NCBI GenBank assembly: GCA_902500055.1
Contig: GCA_902500055.1_4131.1
Length of the DNA: 64,000 nt
DNA from: Escherichia coli
GTDB taxonomy: Bacteria > Pseudomonadota > Gammaproteobacteria > Enterobacterales > Enterobacteriaceae
Direction: 5' to 3' (one strand)
Shown: positions 312 to 60,382 of the stretch, in pieces
Position numbering within the stretch: the stretch's first letter is position 1
Layout of the letters: each line of letters begins with the position of its first letter
The notes under the pieces: model-generated
The model's database searches: none
What the model was told of the DNA's origin: nothing
The model's input: the letters and a program-made list of their open reading frames with translations, nothing else
Position numbers and translations under genes: made by a program

Positions 312-339
312 ATTATACAGTACTGATATCTTATGTCAA
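312..339 (-). promoter_or_regulatory. sigma-70-type promoter (TTGACA-N16-TATAAT)
   Basis: Minus strand reads TTGACAtaagatatcagtactgTATAAT; perfect -35 and -10 hexamers. Confidence 0.6.
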
Positions 340-2688: not shown

Positions 2689-2720
2689 AAAAAAAGGTTG
2701 GCATAAGCCAACCTTTTTTC
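2689..2720 (-). terminator. rho-independent terminator (bidirectional hairpin)
   Basis: ggttggc-ataa-gccaacc stem-loop flanked by A-run and T-run, directly after the sigma gene stop. Confidence 0.7.
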
Positions 2721-2721
2721 T

Positions 2722-3687
2722 TTAGAAATCTTCGTATTCGTACCCTTTTGCAAGTACTAACTTCTTAAGCTTTTGCATAGCTTCACTGTACTTTCGGTGT
2801 ATTGATGAACGGGATTTAACATATTTTCCATTATCATCAACAAAACCATTATCAGCAATCTCACGAAGCGTTTCAGGTTCATATTCACCTAGACCATGAA
2901 CACGCTGGATAATCTCACGTTCTTTAGTACTCAATTCGTTAGTCAGTTCATTGATAGCATAACGTAAAGGTGCACGGATACTATCAACATTGAGGTTAAA
3001 ATCAGAAGCAGGTGAATGAATAATGTCACCTAATGTACCATCTGTAACACCGTCTAATGGTGCATCCAGCGAAGTGTATTCGCTTTGAAATAACAAACAA
3101 TTATTAACATGCTGAATCTCAATCCCAGTACCCTCTGAGATTATTTCAGGAGTTGGGCGAACACCATGTTTACGCATATATTCCTGACAGAATCTTTTTA
3201 CTTTGATCTTATGAACACTCATATAACGTGGGAAGTGTACCATATAGTTAGCGTCAGAACTTTCGTTATAGACTGTCATGTAAATACTAGAAGAAGCATA
3301 GGTAATGAACTTAACATTCTTATTAAGATCAAAGGTTTTTAGTGCTCTCATGAACCCCTCAACACCATATGAAATCTTATCTTCAAATGGGATATAACAA
3401 GTACATTTACTTGCTACATCAATAATCAGTCCATAATTGTAACGAACTAACAGTTCAGTGTTTTTCTTTACATTGATACCAGCTTGAATATCACGAATTA
3501 GATCTTCATTGGAAACATTTGGTGGTCGCTTAAGTGTAATATTATATTTGAAACTGCTTTGTACTTTACCTTCATTTTCATCTTTATCTTCAACGAAATC
3601 TAAGGCTTCTAGTGTGTTGACTTCTTCATTAGCAAAACATTCATCCAGAACTTCTTCGGCAATTGTATTTAAATCAAGCTTTTTCAC
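2722..3687 (-). CDS. RNA polymerase sigma factor, sigma-70 family
   Basis: Region 2-like YGLIIDVASKCTCYIPFEDKISYGVEGFMRALKTFD and region 4-like EREIIQRVHGLGEYEPETLREIADNGFVDDNGKYVKSRSSIHRKYSEAMQKL. Confidence 0.8.
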   Translation of the reverse strand: MKKLDLNTIAEEVLDECFANEEVNTLEALDFVEDKDENEGKVQSSFKYNITLKRPPNVSNEDLIRDIQAGINVKKNTELLVRYNYGLIIDVASKCTCYIPFEDKISYGVEGFMRALKTFDLNKNVKFITYASSSIYMTVYNESSDANYMVHFPRYMSVHKIKVKRFCQEYMRKHGVRPTPEIISEGTGIEIQHVNNCLLFQSEYTSLDAPLDGVTDGTLGDIIHSPASDFNLNVDSIRAPLRYAINELTNELSTKEREIIQRVHGLGEYEPETLREIADNGFVDDNGKYVKSRSSIHRKYSEAMQKLKKLVLAKGYEYEDF

Positions 3688-3708
3688 TTACATCTCCTAA
3701 TGACGAAA

Positions 3709-4206
3709 TCAAAATCGATATACATTAATATTATCATCTGTGAAGCAATCATGGTTATGCACATCCATGAAAGTACTAAACACTTTATCATATAAAGTTG
3801 TATGTTCTTCATGAATAGCAGCATCTACCATGTATTCTCCACCACTTCCCATAAAGAAAGTGTAGTCTTCATGTAGATATTCAAGTTTTTTAATAAACTT
3901 TCCTTTAGTTAAAATCATATGAATAACATAATCTTTAGAAAGAAGCACACAATGGCAACTTAACTTTCTGTCAGGTATAACTGGTACTTTATTAATTAAC
4001 CAATCCAGTACTTTATCAATTTCACTTACTGCCCCACTAGCACTGAATAAACGGTCATGTACATATAAAGTTTTTTGATTAACAACTCCATATTGATATT
4101 TTGGTCTTAGTGGAAAAAAACCAAATAAGTTTCGTGGTATAGTTGACGTAACTCTAGAATCGGTAATCAATAAATTTAATCGTTTATCAATATAAACAGT
4201 TGTCAT
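3709..4206 (-). CDS. hslV: HslV-like Ntn-hydrolase peptidase (proteasome beta-type)
   Basis: N-terminal MTTVYID and motifs LFSASGAVSE and FMGSGGEYMVDAA align with HslV MTTIVSV, AGFAGGTADAF and IGSGGPYAQAAA. Confidence 0.55.
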   Translation of the reverse strand: MTTVYIDKRLNLLITDSRVTSTIPRNLFGFFPLRPKYQYGVVNQKTLYVHDRLFSASGAVSEIDKVLDWLINKVPVIPDRKLSCHCVLLSKDYVIHMILTKGKFIKKLEYLHEDYTFFMGSGGEYMVDAAIHEEHTTLYDKVFSTFMDVHNHDCFTDDNINVYRF

Positions 4207-4207
4207 A

Positions 4208-4627
4208 TTAAACCTTATCTAAGAATTTATCGTATATATAAAATTCTTTATCGGTGAATACATTAATTCTAGTATCGAATCTTTGCATCGTGTTCATATA
4301 CAATGAACTTTTTAAATAAAAATACAAAGCAACAAATTCTGATATATGCATATTCTTTTTATTGTTACATAAATTCTTTAGCATTTTGATGCTATCAAAT
4401 TCTTCTTTATCAAATCTGTACTGGTAAAAATTATATCTATTGAACTGGCACTCATAGATACGAAGTGCCATTATATCAATACATGCTTGCGATTTACAGT
4501 ACTTATTCAATACGTCATAATCACCCGTACATAATGCTACAAAGATTTTATGTGCAAGTGTAGCTTTTCCTTCAATCGTATGATAACCAAAGAACTTAAT
4601 GATTAAGTACTGAAGAAATCTAAACAT
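4208..4627 (-). CDS. hypothetical protein
   Basis: 139 aa ORF in tight minus-strand array. Confidence 0.5.
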   Translation of the reverse strand: MFRFLQYLIIKFFGYHTIEGKATLAHKIFVALCTGDYDVLNKYCKSQACIDIMALRIYECQFNRYNFYQYRFDKEEFDSIKMLKNLCNNKKNMHISEFVALYFYLKSSLYMNTMQRFDTRINVFTDKEFYIYDKFLDKV

Positions 4628-4632
4628 TTTAT

Positions 4633-4893
4633 TTAGAATTTCTCCGAAATTACAAGTGTATCATCATAATCATCAGCAATATCATGAAGAACTTTTAAGT
4701 TACTTTCACCAGAAACGCTTTTTACTTCGTTCAAAAGATAGTTTAGATCAACTTTAGTTACTTTTTCTGAATCAAACACACAGAAAGTTAATTCAGCGTT
4801 TGGACAGATCTTCTTCAGATTATCAGCAACCACTTGTTTGAAGTTGAAAGATGGGGAAGCAACTAGGTTAACTGCAACGAGAATAGATTTCAT
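4633..4893 (-). CDS. hypothetical protein
   Basis: 86 aa ORF. Confidence 0.5.
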   Translation of the reverse strand: MKSILVAVNLVASPSFNFKQVVADNLKKICPNAELTFCVFDSEKVTKVDLNYLLNEVKSVSGESNLKVLHDIADDYDDTLVISEKF

Positions 4894-4967
4894 AATGTTT
4901 TCCTTTCTAGCTGATAATTAAATTAGGAGCACATTGTACTCCATATTATTTGTTATGTCAAATACTT

Positions 4968-5219
4968 TTAGATACCAAGTGCAGTAGATAACTCTTTACG
5001 TTTGTTATATGAATCAGATTCAATCTTACTTTTCTTGTTGAAAAGGGATTCGATATCCTTATAGATTGCTTCGATAGATTTAGTTACTACCCATTCTGAT
5101 TCTTGAAGCATACCTTGGAGTCGTGCGTACTCAACTTTGATAGTACTGCGAAGTTCTTCACAAACTTCTTCATTCTTAATTAGTGCAGCACTAAGTTCTT
5201 TGACCTTATCGATGTTCAT
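4968..5219 (-). CDS. hypothetical protein
   Basis: 83 aa ORF, helical/charged composition. Confidence 0.45.
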   Translation of the reverse strand: MNIDKVKELSAALIKNEEVCEELRSTIKVEYARLQGMLQESEWVVTKSIEAIYKDIESLFNKKSKIESDSYNKRKELSTALGI

Positions 5220-5278
5220 AAGTTCCTTACTCTAATTTGTTTTTAACAAAATAATTATATATAACATACTAAATTATG

Positions 5279-5704
5279 TCAAGTATTTTTAGTACCTTCT
5301 TCTGCCATTTTTGTGATATACCAATTAAGTACTGATTTGTGTACCATAAAAAATGTGAATGCAAATATAGCAATAGCTGCTGATGTAACACTATTAGATA
5401 ATGACCCAAGTTGGATGTTAGTACCTAAAATAACAATAAATGGATACAACACAATCAATCTACTGTAAGGTTCGTCTCCAGTATCACGGAGAAATCCAAG
5501 CCTTTCATGATCAGTATCCATAGTGACAATTGGACAGAACATAAGTGCAGACATAAGAGCAATACCAATTTGTGCTACATTGGAAATTGTAAACCACAAA
5601 GGATTTAAACCATATGAAATATTATTTTCTGTACAGTAGTAACCAAACGAATTGAATGCACAAACTAAAAATACAAAAATACAAATCTTATTATAACCTC
5701 TCAT
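5279..5704 (-). CDS. hypothetical membrane protein
   Basis: Several hydrophobic segments. Confidence 0.5.
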   Translation of the reverse strand: MRGYNKICIFVFLVCAFNSFGYYCTENNISYGLNPLWFTISNVAQIGIALMSALMFCPIVTMDTDHERLGFLRDTGDEPYSRLIVLYPFIVILGTNIQLGSLSNSVTSAAIAIFAFTFFMVHKSVLNWYITKMAEEGTKNT

Positions 5705-6583: not shown

Positions 6584-6625
6584 TTTCCATCCCCCCTTGG
6601 GTTACTTGGTGTGTTAATTATAATA

Positions 6626-7102
6626 CTAAGAATCTTTGTTGTCAAACTTTTCCCTCAAGTATTTTTCTATTAATCTAATTTGTGTTGGTGGTAAGATAAA
6701 GTAATCGTACATAGATTTACTACCATGTATCGAACAACCTACACTAATACTATAATCATATGGATATAAGTATATTGGGTCTTGTATATCAGGTATGAAA
6801 ACTATTCTTGGTATATTACCATTTCCTATTCTTACTTGGACGTTATCATTATTATTAAGATAATTTCTTATACAGTACTCAATTATACCATTTACTTTAG
6901 AATCATAACCATAATTTTTATATTCAGGAAAAATGAAATAGCGTTCATGGTATAGATATGAGCATAGTAATGCTGGGAAAAAATTCCAAAAACCTTCATG
7001 CTTTGCAATTGTTTGTGCATATTTAAAATGATTAGCATTACTAAAAATATTATACAGCACAAAATACACAAATGGACTAACCAACAACACTATTGTTAAC
7101 AT
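6626..7102 (-). CDS. hypothetical membrane protein
   Basis: Hydrophobic N-terminus MLTIVLLVSPFVYFVLYNIF. Confidence 0.45.
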   Translation of the reverse strand: MLTIVLLVSPFVYFVLYNIFSNANHFKYAQTIAKHEGFWNFFPALLCSYLYHERYFIFPEYKNYGYDSKVNGIIEYCIRNYLNNNDNVQVRIGNGNIPRIVFIPDIQDPIYLYPYDYSISVGCSIHGSKSMYDYFILPPTQIRLIEKYLREKFDNKDS

Positions 7103-8460: not shown

Positions 8461-8484
8461 ATAATTATACCAATGGAGGGATAA

Positions 8485-9639
8485 ATGTCAAGGTCAATTG
8501 CTGCGGCTGGACGCTATAAGTTTGGTGAATGTGGTTATGTTGTTGATGGTGCAATCCTCAATGATGGAACTAGACTAAAAAATATTAGAATCTATCGCCA
8601 AAGAAGCCATAGATTATATGATTTAGTTGATCCAAGAACTAATATAATATATCGTAAAGTACAAATAACAACTAAAGATAATAAAGGTTATCTATTAAAT
8701 TACAATAAAACTAATGACCAACTATTAAGTGAAATTAATAAAAATTGTTTCTTTGTTCGTGGATATTCTGAAGAGCCACAAGAAACTGATACTGGATTTG
8801 TATATAAATTTATGCTACATAAAACAATTTTAGGTAGTTCACAAACCTTGTATCATATGTATACACCTGAATGTGGTATTATAGATCGTGATATAGATAA
8901 TATTCTCATTTCACCAGTATTTGTTGGTAATGACTCAATTAGTGGTAAATTATTCAACACTGGTTCAGAAATTGATACTAACGGTATGGTAATAACAATC
9001 GTATTACCAGACGGGACAGAATACTTTACTACCCAATTTGTTAATGATGCATTTACAATTCCAGTTGATGTTATCACACAATCAGGGAAAGGTACTGCTA
9101 CACTCACTTCTCCATATTATAACACTAAAGTGGTGGAATTTGATGTTCTTGAAAGTGGTGAGGATATTGATTTTGTTACATCAGTTCTTCTATCCCAATT
9201 TGAACCTGTTTCGGAAGGTGTATTTTCTGCGGTTGTTCCATTTGATGTTCATGATCGTGGACAGTACTTAGCACTTCAAGCATACAGTGGTGACTTATAT
9301 CAAGTTGGTGTAGATCTTTCTGTAGACGCAGAAGGTAATATTACTGTGTATCAAACTGACAATTTACCTGTTTCTTTGAGTATAATCGGAAAAACACTGC
9401 ATACTACTCCTTTCCATAAAGAATATACTTTAAGTGAGTGGGTTCTCGGTGAAGACTCTATGTACTCTATCTCAGTTCCAGTAACTGAACATGGTAAAGC
9501 ACTACCACAAGTTCAATTATATTCTTCAGACAATCATGTAGTTCATAGTGAAATACAAGTGGATGAAGATGATAATGTAATTCTTAAAGTAGTAGAACCG
9601 CTTGACTGCTCAGTCGTAATAGTTGGTTACAACGCATAA
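8485..9639 (+). CDS. hypothetical protein
   Basis: 384 aa plus-strand ORF with good SD, ends at a convergent terminator. Confidence 0.6.
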   Translation: MSRSIAAAGRYKFGECGYVVDGAILNDGTRLKNIRIYRQRSHRLYDLVDPRTNIIYRKVQITTKDNKGYLLNYNKTNDQLLSEINKNCFFVRGYSEEPQETDTGFVYKFMLHKTILGSSQTLYHMYTPECGIIDRDIDNILISPVFVGNDSISGKLFNTGSEIDTNGMVITIVLPDGTEYFTTQFVNDAFTIPVDVITQSGKGTATLTSPYYNTKVVEFDVLESGEDIDFVTSVLLSQFEPVSEGVFSAVVPFDVHDRGQYLALQAYSGDLYQVGVDLSVDAEGNITVYQTDNLPVSLSIIGKTLHTTPFHKEYTLSEWVLGEDSMYSISVPVTEHGKALPQVQLYSSDNHVVHSEIQVDEDDNVILKVVEPLDCSVVIVGYNA

Positions 9640-15672: not shown

Positions 15673-15729
15673 ATCCTATATAAGTAATATATAGTATTTA
15701 GTGCTATGAAATAGATTCGAACTTATTTG

Positions 15730-15803
15730 TGCCCCAATTCCGACTCGAACGGAAAAATCTCACGATTACAAATCGTGTGCATTACCAATTTTGCTATTGA
15801 GGC
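15730..15803 (-). tRNA. tRNA-Thr (anticodon TGT)
   Basis: Hand-folded cloverleaf: acceptor GCCTCAA/TTGGGGC, anticodon stem CACGA/TCGTG with loop TTTGTAA, T-arm TTCCG-TTCGAGT-CGGAA. Confidence 0.65.
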
Positions 15804-16066: not shown

Positions 16067-16192
<126 letters not shown>

Positions 16193-17035: not shown

Positions 17036-17347
<312 letters not shown>

Positions 17348-17397
17348 TTAATTAACAGTTAATCGCACCACCTATTGTGCTACAGAGTCATAATTAT

Positions 17398-18433: not shown

Positions 18434-18686
<253 letters not shown>

Positions 18687-21032: not shown

Positions 21033-21046
21033 AATATTATATTTTA

Positions 21047-21118
21047 TAAAGGGCCGGAGAATCGAACTCCGATTGGATTCTTAGAAGGAATCTGTTTTAT
21101 CCGTTAAACTAGCCCCTC
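21047..21118 (-). tRNA. tRNA-Arg (anticodon TCT)
   Basis: Hand-folded: D-stem GTTT/AAAC, anticodon stem GATTC/GAATC with loop CTTCTAA, T-arm CGGAG-TTCGATT-CTCCG; acceptor needs two G-U pairs. Confidence 0.55.
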
Positions 21119-21128
21119 AGTACTAATA

Positions 21129-21709: not shown

Positions 21710-22045
<336 letters not shown>

Positions 22046-25620: not shown

Positions 25621-25980
25621 TTAATTATTAGAAAGAACAATTTTTGAAACTGGTAAATCTGTATTATTTACACGTTGTTCATTATATCCATTCTGTACAA
25701 GAATGTCAATAACTTTAGACTTATCAATTGTAAATGATTCTAACATATCATATCGGTAATAACCAATAGTCTGACTGAACTCATATTTTCCTGGCTGTTG
25801 ACGACAACACGTATTTGTTTCAGCCATAATCTTATTGATTAGGTAATATGTTTCAGTACTATCAATATTTGGAATATAGATCTTATCATCAAAATGAATT
25901 ACTTCATGTTTATTCATAGAGTGATTCAATCTCCGCTTTAAGAATGGAAATAATCTCTTTCTGAAGGCCAGTAATTTCAC
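25621..25980 (-). CDS. hypothetical protein
   Basis: 119 aa ORF. Confidence 0.5.
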   Translation of the reverse strand: MKLLAFRKRLFPFLKRRLNHSMNKHEVIHFDDKIYIPNIDSTETYYLINKIMAETNTCCRQQPGKYEFSQTIGYYRYDMLESFTIDKSKVIDILVQNGYNEQRVNNTDLPVSKIVLSNN

Positions 25981-26179: not shown

Positions 26180-26469
26180 TAAATTGTTCCTTTCATGAAG
26201 TCTGGAATAACGATTACGATAGGAGGATTATACTCTACATAACCATTTTTTGTCAATAGACTTTTAATATCTGAAATCACATTATCATGCTGTTCAATAT
26301 CTTTATCACAAAAGATTTCCAATTCTTTCTGAAACGGTTTTTTAACCGAGATGTTTTGAGTCAGTGTTTGGATTCTCTGTAACATATCAATTGGATCTGG
26401 ACTGAACTCATTACCAACATAAAGAGTACCAGATGCATCTTTTTCTAGCAAGACTTCTAAAATTTTCAT
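26179..26469 (-). CDS. hypothetical protein
   Basis: 96 aa ORF. Confidence 0.5.
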   Translation of the reverse strand: MKILEVLLEKDASGTLYVGNEFSPDPIDMLQRIQTLTQNISVKKPFQKELEIFCDKDIEQHDNVISDIKSLLTKNGYVEYNPPIVIVIPDFMKGTI

Positions 26470-28055: not shown

Positions 28056-28255
28056 TTCGTATATCCTCGTTTAATTAATATAGGAGTATTATACATACTC
28101 CATTTTCATGTGTCAAGCTTTATAATACGGAAGACTTTTTACTAAAGATTCAGACGTATTATTTTTTACCCATGTACTACCGTTGTCATTAGATACGTAT
28201 CCAGTACCATTAATAAATTTACGCATAATACCAGTAAAAATGTTAGTGTATACCA

Positions 28256-42149: not shown

Positions 42150-42193
42150 TTAAAAAGAGTGCGTTTTCAATAAGATTATATTAAAAACGCACT
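42150..42193 (-). terminator. hairpin terminator candidate
   Basis: 11-bp stem gagtgcgtttt/aaaacgcactc with a long loop, followed by TTTTT on the minus strand. Confidence 0.35.
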
Positions 42194-42206
42194 CATATGT
42201 CAACTA

Positions 42207-48736: not shown

Positions 48737-49063
48737 TTAACGACCAAAGGTTAGCATTTTAGTTCGTGGATCTTCATCTGAAACTAAACTAACTGCGGCT
48801 GGATAATCAACCAAGTTTAATTCAATACCATCAACTTCAATAGTTCTTGACCATCGACCATGATCAATTAAAATCCATTGACCTTCTTTAATATCAGTAA
48901 TGTCTTCGCCTACAGAATAAACTTTTGCCCAGCGAGAACGAATACCTCTAATTTTACCGTCATCGTTTGTTAAAACGATACCACCTGCTGTTTTGCGTTC
49001 ACCATGTTCCAGTTCAGTTACCAGTACTTTACCTTTACATGCAGTCATTACTTTATTAGTCAT
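48737..49063 (-). CDS. groES: co-chaperonin GroES/gp31-like
   Basis: ERKTAGGIVLT matches the GroES ETKSAGGIVLT signature; about 100 aa. Confidence 0.7.
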   Translation of the reverse strand: MTNKVMTACKGKVLVTELEHGERKTAGGIVLTNDDGKIRGIRSRWAKVYSVGEDITDIKEGQWILIDHGRWSRTIEVDGIELNLVDYPAAVSLVSDEDPRTKMLTFGR

Positions 49064-57069: not shown

Positions 57070-59236
<2,167 letters not shown>

Positions 59237-59246
59237 AGTCTATATT

Positions 59247-60309
<1,063 letters not shown>

Positions 60310-60353: not shown

Positions 60354-60382
60354 ATTATAGGATAGAACATTAGTTCTGTCAA
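60354..60382 (-). promoter_or_regulatory. sigma-70-type promoter (TTGACA-N17-TATAAT)
   Basis: Minus strand TTGACAgaactaatgttctatccTATAAT about 45 nt upstream of the IF-3-like ATG. Confidence 0.6.

Follow-up and report, generated by a model that had tools for sequence, protein, structure and literature searches.

A predicted proteasome-type N-terminal-nucleophile hydrolase in a 121Q-like jumbo coliphage

Positions 3709-4206 of a 64,000-nucleotide (nt) stretch of DNA filed under Escherichia coli (GenBank assembly GCA_902500055.1, contig GCA_902500055.1_4131.1; this whole stretch is called the window below) hold an open reading frame (ORF) of 165 amino acids (aa). An earlier reading made from the letters alone (the sequence-only reading) had named its product an HslV-like proteasome-type peptidase without an adjacent HslU. 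The locus raises the question of what kind of proteasome homologue a large phage encodes, and how such an enzyme would work with no unfoldase gene beside it. Judged by its predicted structure, the protein is a proteasome-family N-terminal-nucleophile (Ntn) hydrolase that is roughly equidistant from all characterised branches and is not HslV specifically. Its sequence further suggests, with a probability that we put at about 0.7, an active threonine-nucleophile peptidase of a phage-specific minimal proteasome-homologue lineage, which would be made early, lack a dedicated unfoldase and act on restricted or unstructured substrates.

Phage proteasome homologues were recognised only in 2021, and substrate, partner and quaternary structure are known for none. 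Fuchs, Alva and Lupas described 22 new proteasome homologues and found no co-occurring AAA+ partner for them; the phage family PPH (~140 aa, without insertions) and its relative RPC were the only ones lacking just helix H2 (PMC8665760). As a kind, phage proteasome homologues are already known from that survey (PMC8665760). New here are the architecture of the family and its setting, a presumed early region of a genome that also encodes a full Clp system and a second paralogue.

A conserved gene of jumbo phages

The source of the window is a 121Q/PBECO4-like (Asteriusvirus) jumbo coliphage of ~348 kb, and over positions 2700-5000 its identity is 99.5% to phage SHEFM2K and ~98% to 121Q, PBECO4, phAPEC6 and Sharanji. 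The ORF with an MTT start and the motifs GSGG and SASGA that the sequence-only reading had pointed to lies exactly where it was placed, on the minus strand:

3709-4206, minus strand: proteasome-type Ntn hydrolase gene, 165 aa (from the ORF list, orthologues, predicted fold and PHROG match)

The protein starts MTTVYIDKRLNLLITDSRVT; SASGA spans residues 55-59, and GSGG spans 120-123. The gene is real, far beyond a chance ORF. Searching a phage collection with tblastn matched 52 records at 29-99% identity, full-length in 51, and these span Escherichia, Klebsiella (RaK2, K64-1; 10 records), Salmonella (Munch, SE_PL) and Erwinia phages; all named family matches are jumbo phages or phage contigs labelled E. 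coli or Salmonella. The gene is under strong purifying selection, with a ratio of nonsynonymous to synonymous substitution rates (dN/dS) of 0.056 against the 74.5%-identical Turkey3 orthologue, a comparison in which dS is saturated. Among 1.84 billion cluster representatives, phmmer found 16 proteins, ~13 of them genuine full-length relatives, and a profile search of 5.8 billion proteins returned 22 family matches, none with a precomputed Pfam domain. Lengths within the family range from 165 to 188 aa.

Nearly all records carry the label 'hypothetical protein', as do the orthologues 121Q gp166 and phAPEC6 gp067c; the exceptions are Turkey3 ('ATP-dependent protease') and fEgEco12 ('HslV', UniRef). 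Our literature search found no paper that discusses the gene, and the fEgEco12 paper is silent on it. In ~50 genomes 'hypothetical protein' could give way to 'proteasome-like Ntn peptidase', and the few existing labels 'ATP-dependent protease subunit HslV' on orthologues are over-specific.

Fold and sequence profiles

AlphaFold2 gave a predicted local distance difference test (pLDDT) score of 83.6 and a predicted template modelling (pTM) score of 0.74 with 15 sequences, and 93.7 and 0.85 with 20 more diverse sequences, where all five models exceeded a pLDDT of 92.8 and had the same topology. The models have the alpha-beta-beta-alpha Ntn core common to 20S subunits, HslV, Anbu, BPH and connectase. 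Foldseek against the Protein Data Bank (PDB) returned Staphylococcus aureus HslV (E=1.1e-5), connectase, 20S subunits and PurO, all of them proteasome-type Ntn folds, and by structural closeness HslV is not nearer to the model than 20S beta or Anbu. In BFVD the best matches from outside the family are assorted phage proteasome-like proteins, with template modelling (TM) scores of 0.57-0.68.

Sequence profiles also link the protein to this superfamily. Its best PHROG is phrog_24804 (unknown function, E=1.7e-103), followed by phrog_1040, 'peptidase HslV family', at E=1.7e-5 over residues 1-128. The latter is matched by 12 of 20 family members (best E=8.8e-11) and also by E. coli HslV (E=1.1e-22), and residue 1 of the family members and of E. 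coli HslV aligns at the same profile position, 14. Curated models behave differently: Pfam and NCBIfam at E<=10 gave nothing for the 165-aa protein, although E. coli HslV as positive control in its NCBIfam run scored 304 and 288 bits against the HslV equivalog models; the Proteasome model PF00227 matched only 2 of 20 family members (best E 0.086), and the NCBIfam HslV and proteasome models matched none of the 20. Genuine HslV is separated from our protein by exactly these models (TIGR03692, PRK05456 and PF00227), which do not recognise the latter.

Pairwise profile comparison adds little. With hhalign, the family profile aligned to E. coli HslV, to a 197-aa paralogue described below and to an alignment of 121Q gp475-type proteins in the GSG segment only, at a probability of at most 7.5%. 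A hidden Markov model (HMM) from the gp475-type sub-family did not detect the 165-aa family, HslV relatives gathered to deepen the profile were all at least 85% identical and of no use, and E. coli HslV as a tblastn query matched the phage collection only in 'unverified phage' records, where the DNA is that of the host. Matches of the protein or its profile to an aminopeptidase fragment, a tRNA methyltransferase and a T-cell receptor chain among PDB sequences were rejected as spurious.

Predicted catalytic residues and N-terminus

In proteasome homologues the triad and oxyanion hole consist of an N-terminal Thr or Ser, Asp17, Lys33 and Gly47 (PMC8665760). Across 20 family sequences down to 24% identity, 12 positions are invariant (M1, T2, T3, D16, T20, K45, D51, G58, G120, S121, G122 and D153) and R18 and Q44 nearly so. 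In a joint MAFFT L-INS-i alignment that includes genuine HslVs and proteins of the phage HslV family, T2 stands under HslV T1, D16 under D17 and G120-S121-G122 under G123-S124-G125; a greedy local hhalign alignment gives these pairings and adds T20/T21 and the segments ASG/AGG. The predicted catalytic positions are, all on the minus strand:

4201-4206, minus strand: Met1 and Thr2 (ATG-ACA), invariant and aligned; Thr2 is the predicted N-terminal nucleophile after Met removal
4159-4161, minus strand: Asp16 codon, equivalent to proteasome/HslV Asp17, in the TDSRVT motif (residues 15-20); invariant, MAFFT and hhalign
4072-4074, minus strand: Lys45 codon, putative equivalent of the catalytic Lys33; the only invariant Lys, before strand 46-49
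4033-4035, minus strand: Gly58 codon, putative oxyanion-hole Gly (proteasome Gly47; HslV G45/G48 region); invariant, aligned to HslV AGGTAD
3841-3849, minus strand: Gly120-Ser121-Gly122 codons, equivalent to HslV G123-S124-G125 and proteasome G128-S129-G130; invariant, every alignment method
3748-3750, minus strand: Asp153 codon, putative equivalent of proteasome Asp166; invariant, directly after helix H4 (135-151)

In the model, G58 closes strand 52-58 and helix H1 comes directly after it; S121 is preceded by strand 116-119 and followed by helix H3, and D153 follows H4. S121 and D153 presumably match the Ser129 and Asp166 sites of 20S beta subunits, and a conserved Thr or Ser at position 156 is the likely counterpart of Ser169.

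The N-terminus points the same way. In seven orthologues at 27-100% identity an in-frame stop stands 1-7 codons upstream of ATG-ACN-ACN, which leaves no room for a propeptide, so that Thr2 would be the N-terminus once methionine aminopeptidase removes Met1. This enzyme removes Met before small second residues, and the Thr at position 2 makes removal of Met1 likely. The proposal that the Thr exposed after Met serves as the nucleophile is thereby upheld, with MTT invariant, T2 in the HslV T1 column and no propeptide. So is the placing of GSGG and SASGA in HslV-like positions, GSG being aligned by every method and ASG set against HslV AGG by hhalign. A check of conservation, which the sequence-only reading had called for, finds Thr kept, Lys apparently kept and no better match to an unrelated fold. 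The broader label 'HslV-like peptidase' survives in part: the proteasome-type fold and catalytic set stand, and HslV orthology does not, given that the HslV models fail and helix H2 is missing.

The chemistry that we propose would begin with removal of Met1 by the host methionine aminopeptidase. The amino group of the freed Thr2 would act as the base and its hydroxyl as the nucleophile, Asp16 and Lys45 would complete the triad, Gly58 would provide the oxyanion hole, and Ser121, Asp153 and Thr156 would orient the active site, an arrangement known from HslV and from 20S beta subunits. The enzyme would then most likely cut peptide bonds of unstructured substrates, or of a restricted set of proteins from host or phage, and need no AAA+ unfoldase of its own.

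An inactive protein with a structural or decoy role, or the lack of any functional gene, is hardly credible. Such a protein might well go unrecognised by the curated family models and sit in records labelled almost without exception as hypothetical, as this one does; against it stand the full catalytic constellation, invariant down to 24% identity, the strong purifying selection, the very confident AlphaFold2 fold and the full-length preservation in 51 of 52 records.

Architecture compared with known homologues

Two features set the family apart. Only a single helix (60-72, H1) connects strands 52-58 and 84-89 in both AlphaFold2 models, and in the joint alignment HslV has ~24 extra residues between these strands; helix H2 is therefore missing, while H1, H3 and H4 are kept. 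The second feature is an insertion between strands S3 and S4, beside the active site:

4084-4146, minus strand: family-specific beta-hairpin insertion at the S3/S4 site, residues 21-41 (AlphaFold2 models, joint alignment)

Its strands, 18-27 and 31-41, are present in both models, and it is an insertion relative to HslV and to the phrog_1040 proteins. T20 and K45 are separated by 24 residues, compared with 11 between T21 and K33 in HslV. The insertion measures 13-20 residues within the family and is still longer in the most distant members.

HslV is thus the reverse of our protein in both respects, having H2 and no S3/S4 hairpin. The two have the mature N-terminal Thr1 in common, provided that Met is removed as proposed. 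HslV forms a dodecamer made up of two hexameric rings, which the AAA+ ATPase HslU activates; our models are of a single chain. HslV is part of the hslVU heat-shock operon, whereas the 165-aa gene is a phage gene, presumably early, with no hslU adjacent. Compared with 20S beta, Anbu and BPH (185-230 aa), the 165-aa protein lacks a propeptide, H2 and an alpha-type partner.

PPH, compared by its published description only, is the closest in kind. Both are encoded by phages, have Thr directly after Met, have lost H2 while keeping H1, H3 and H4 (H3 and H4 being the helices that mediate ring-ring contacts; PMC8665760) and come without an AAA+ partner; the 165-aa protein is compact too, without the C-terminal elements S12 and H5. 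The differences are length (165-188 aa against ~140) and the S3/S4 hairpin. The family is PPH-like in its loss of H2, yet longer and with an S3/S4 insertion. Representatives of PPH (WP_042125023.1), RPC and DPH were absent among the up to four accessions listed per family cluster, and a PPH-sized 146-aa 'Proteasome subunit beta' of Caulobacter phage CcrBL9 in BFVD is a moderate match (TM 0.60/0.67, 14% identity).

The hairpin occupies the site of the specificity lid of connectase (PMC8665760). This brings up a highly specific processing enzyme or a protein ligase or transpeptidase of the connectase kind, working as a monomer or small oligomer with the insertion as its specificity lid, which we regard as quite improbable. 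In connectase H1 and H2 are both absent and a mobile lid of two helices sits at S3/S4, whereas the 165-aa protein retains H1 and has a beta-hairpin there; its identity to connectase amounts to 7-10%, our analysis turned up no candidate substrate motif, and connectase occurs in methanogenic archaea only, with a substrate of its own (PMC8665760). For the phage protein, peptidase chemistry seems likelier to us than ligation.

Partners and the need for an unfoldase

The sequence-only reading had left two options, use of the host unfoldase or action alone. We searched the relative OR844650, a 352-kb whole genome whose orthologue is 98.8% identical to the 165-aa protein, by local tblastn with E. coli HslU, ClpX, ClpA, Lon, FtsH, ClpP, ClpS and HslV. 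For HslU, ClpX, Lon and FtsH it holds nothing beyond weak AAA+ cross-matches to one ClpA homologue gene; the earlier statement that the window contains no HslU is borne out, and the genome-wide search that it called for is negative in this relative too. The genes for protein turnover and expression that are present are:

OR844650 L008:8203-10512, minus strand: ClpA homologue, 769 aa, 43% identical to E. coli ClpA (E=5e-157), with domains Clp_N, AAA, AAA_2 and ClpB_D2-small
OR844650 L009:42986-43681, minus strand: ClpP homologue, 231 aa, 36% identity (E=2e-33; PF00574 E=4e-41)
OR844650 234180-234770 (L009:38177-38839, minus strand): second Ntn paralogue, 197 aa from the internal start MTCIIAH, ~4 kb from clpP
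59247-59792 of the window, minus strand: ClpS-domain protein (ClpA adaptor), PF02617 at 24.7 bits (cutoff 23); 121Q gp48
59806-60309 of the window, minus strand: translation initiation factor IF-3, both domains, Pfam above the curated cutoff
58630-59175 of the window, minus strand: KTSC-domain protein, DnaJ-like according to the 121Q record, Pfam above the curated cutoff
48737-49063 of the window, minus strand: Cpn10/GroES-like protein, Pfam above the curated cutoff

ClpA and ClpP of OR844650 make up, with the ClpS of the window, a phage-borne ClpS-ClpA-ClpP set. The ClpS, IF-3, Cpn10 and KTSC assignments agree with the 121Q annotation, and Pfam confirms the company of ClpS, IF-3, GroES and a sigma-70-type factor on which a proteostasis and expression toolkit had been proposed; that toolkit is larger than the window shows.

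Phage ClpA carries a 'SIGM' motif, which we take to stand at the position of the IGL loop that docks ClpA to ClpP. Its partner is therefore presumably ClpP. ClpA was considered as partner of the 165-aa protein and judged unlikely, as it keeps the ClpP-type docking loop.

The 197-aa paralogue is the counterpart of 121Q gp475, labelled 'protease', and its match to phrog_1040 has E=4e-24. Like the 165-aa protein, the phrog_1040 proteins (121Q gp475 and those of T5-like (Eps7-type), Aeromonas, Vibrio and Geobacillus phages) are orphans with a Met-Thr start. The gp475 type differs in being ~180-200 aa long, in having no S3/S4 insertion and in having sequence aligned at the position of HslV H2. It is also far commoner, with 198 phage records against 52, and already annotated, and the two families do not strictly co-occur (Klebsiella records: 10 for the 165-aa family against 2 for the paralogue).

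The most serious competitor is a functional analogue of HslV, in which rings of the 165-aa protein would dock E. coli HslU through the C-terminal tails of HslU, redirecting host proteolysis as an ATP-dependent hybrid protease. Judging by general proteasome architecture, H1 and H2 probably form the face that meets the regulator, and of this face H2 is deleted. Both curated HslV equivalog models and the Pfam Proteasome model fail on the protein, and HslV is not its nearest structure. The 197-aa paralogue is the more HslV-like of the two (phrog_1040 E=4e-24 against 1.7e-5) and would fit this part better. The phage-type homologues of the survey likewise come without an AAA+ partner (PMC8665760). 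We consider recruitment of host HslU unlikely and favour the other option, that the peptidase probably acts alone.

The company of Clp genes suggests yet another arrangement, in which the protein is one subunit of a multi-component phage protease, together with the gp475-type paralogue or the ClpA-like unfoldase. The 197-aa paralogue, ClpA and ClpP do share a genome, ClpS is in the window, and another jumbo phage has two HslV genes and no HslU (PMC7823757). The loose co-occurrence of the paralogues, the distance of more than 200 kb between the two Ntn genes and the ClpA loop, which points to ClpP, make this very unlikely.

HslU-like genes do occur in Erwinia and Salmonella jumbo phages, and among records of the phage collection labelled Escherichia only 4 match HslU. 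Short records marked 'UNVERIFIED' (OR851161, OR851086, OR845448, OR846938 and others) contain genuine bacterial hslVU, 95-98% identical to that of the host; such contamination with host DNA can give rise to false 'phage HslVU' matches. A role as prohead protease is ruled out: a different protein serves as head maturation protease, and the phAPEC6 virion proteins listed from mass spectrometry do not include the orthologue gp067c.

Expression context

The Ntn gene is third in a tight minus-strand array consisting of an 86-aa ORF, a 139-aa ORF, the Ntn gene and a sigma factor gene:

4633-4893, minus strand: 86-aa ORF, phrog_26969, unknown function, the first after the nearest promoter-like site
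4208-4627, minus strand: 139-aa ORF, phrog_37211, unknown function
2722-3687, minus strand: sigma-70-family sigma factor (Pfam Sigma70_r2/r3/r4), 21 nt downstream of the Ntn gene
4933-4961, minus strand: nearest upstream sigma-70-like promoter, TTGACA-17-TACAAT, 11/12
5254-5282, minus strand: perfect sigma-70 consensus promoter, TTGACA-17-TATAAT
6617-6645, minus strand: perfect sigma-70 consensus promoter
8464-8491, minus strand: perfect sigma-70 consensus promoter, -10 extended by TG, heading the minus-strand gene array

The stop codon of the 139-aa ORF stands 1 nt before the Ntn start (TAAtATG), and the two are probably co-translated. Apart from the sigma factor, library matches give no known function for the neighbouring genes of the array, and PADLOC has no match for the 165-aa protein or its neighbours.

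Perfect TTGACA-N16-18-TATAAT sites number 10 in the window, against 0.23 expected; all are on the minus strand, and the 5 kb upstream of the gene contain three of them. The others are:

312-339, minus strand: perfect site
16096-16123, minus strand: perfect site
25681-25709, minus strand: perfect site
26227-26256, minus strand: perfect site
28088-28116, minus strand: perfect site
42175-42203, minus strand: perfect site
60354-60382, minus strand: perfect site

The ten sites probably mark transcription units of the host RNA polymerase, that is, early ones. In the related phage CBB, RpoD-like promoters cluster among short ORFs that include a sigma factor, a region its authors read as early host-takeover genes (PMC5259590). 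By analogy, the 165-aa gene would be transcribed early by the host sigma-70 RNA polymerase, in a presumed host-takeover region and together with the phage sigma factor. A terminator-like GC hairpin, GGAGTACAATGTGCTCC, at 4926-4942 on the minus strand overlaps the -10 element of the 4933-4961 site; it could be a combined terminator and promoter junction, or a chance match.

The order of Ntn gene then sigma factor gene is kept in RaK2 (46% identity), Munch (29%) and Hallingskeid (43%, with two small ORFs between). We also considered a specific functional link between the two genes. It is unsupported, and adjacency is not evidence for it, because the whole block is syntenic within the clade and a sigma gene is missing from the surroundings of the two most distant homologues.

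Discussion

Several observations weigh against an active, early, unfoldase-independent peptidase. At the level of sequence, neither the family profile nor phmmer matched any proteasome or HslV chain among PDB sequences, and the greedy local hhalign alignment to genuine HslV is weak (147 columns, E=0.0011, probability 21%). Both alignments put K45 two residues off HslV K33, beside the large insertion, and because of this offset we infer its equivalence to Lys33 from its invariance and its position before strand 46-49. Connectase has the same triad, so that sequence does not separate peptidase from ligase. Independence from an unfoldase, which we hold to be probable, is argued from the absence of a partner and the missing helix, and host HslU is still a candidate; early timing is founded on promoter consensus and analogy.

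A more specific form of the proposed peptidase can be imagined, as a stand-alone 'mini-proteasome' of the first minutes of infection that is co-transcribed with the sigma factor, needs no unfoldase, uses the S3/S4 hairpin as specificity element and destroys or processes one or a few host proteins. Its targets might, for example, be a transcription factor, a competitor of sigma-70 or an anti-phage defence protein. We rate this picture, targets included, as speculative and more doubtful than not by a wide measure; if true, it would be the first biological role assigned to any viral proteasome homologue.

Even at the level of fold, the family adds a distinct architecture, with no H2 and a hairpin at the site of the specificity lid of connectase. 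It belongs to a cultivable group of E. coli phages (121Q, PBECO4, phAPEC6, Sharanji) and is experimentally tractable. A genome with ClpS, ClpA, ClpP, a GroES-like protein, a KTSC-domain protein and a second Ntn paralogue is also a good system in which to ask why large phages bring proteolysis machinery.

Other features of the window

Five tRNA genes lie in the window:

15729-15803, minus strand: tRNA gene
17316-17389, minus strand: tRNA gene
18581-18670, minus strand: tRNA gene
21046-21119, minus strand: tRNA gene
21952-22023, minus strand: tRNA gene

The window tRNAs are Thr-tgt, Asn-gtt, Ser-gct, Arg-tct and Gly-tcc, and the 121Q annotation of the region adds Met, Leu and a second Ser. A 262-aa ORF at 845-1633 on the minus strand has paired Cys motifs (CDCCGESN ... 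CEDCNALRQHK) and has the appearance of a putative HNH-type zinc-finger nuclease. In the first 50,000 positions of SHEFM2K (1-50000), at ~35-45 kb, there are long tandem arrays of paralogous small genes, for instance five consecutive members of phrog 9317 and several of phrogs 15629, 13866 and 12674.

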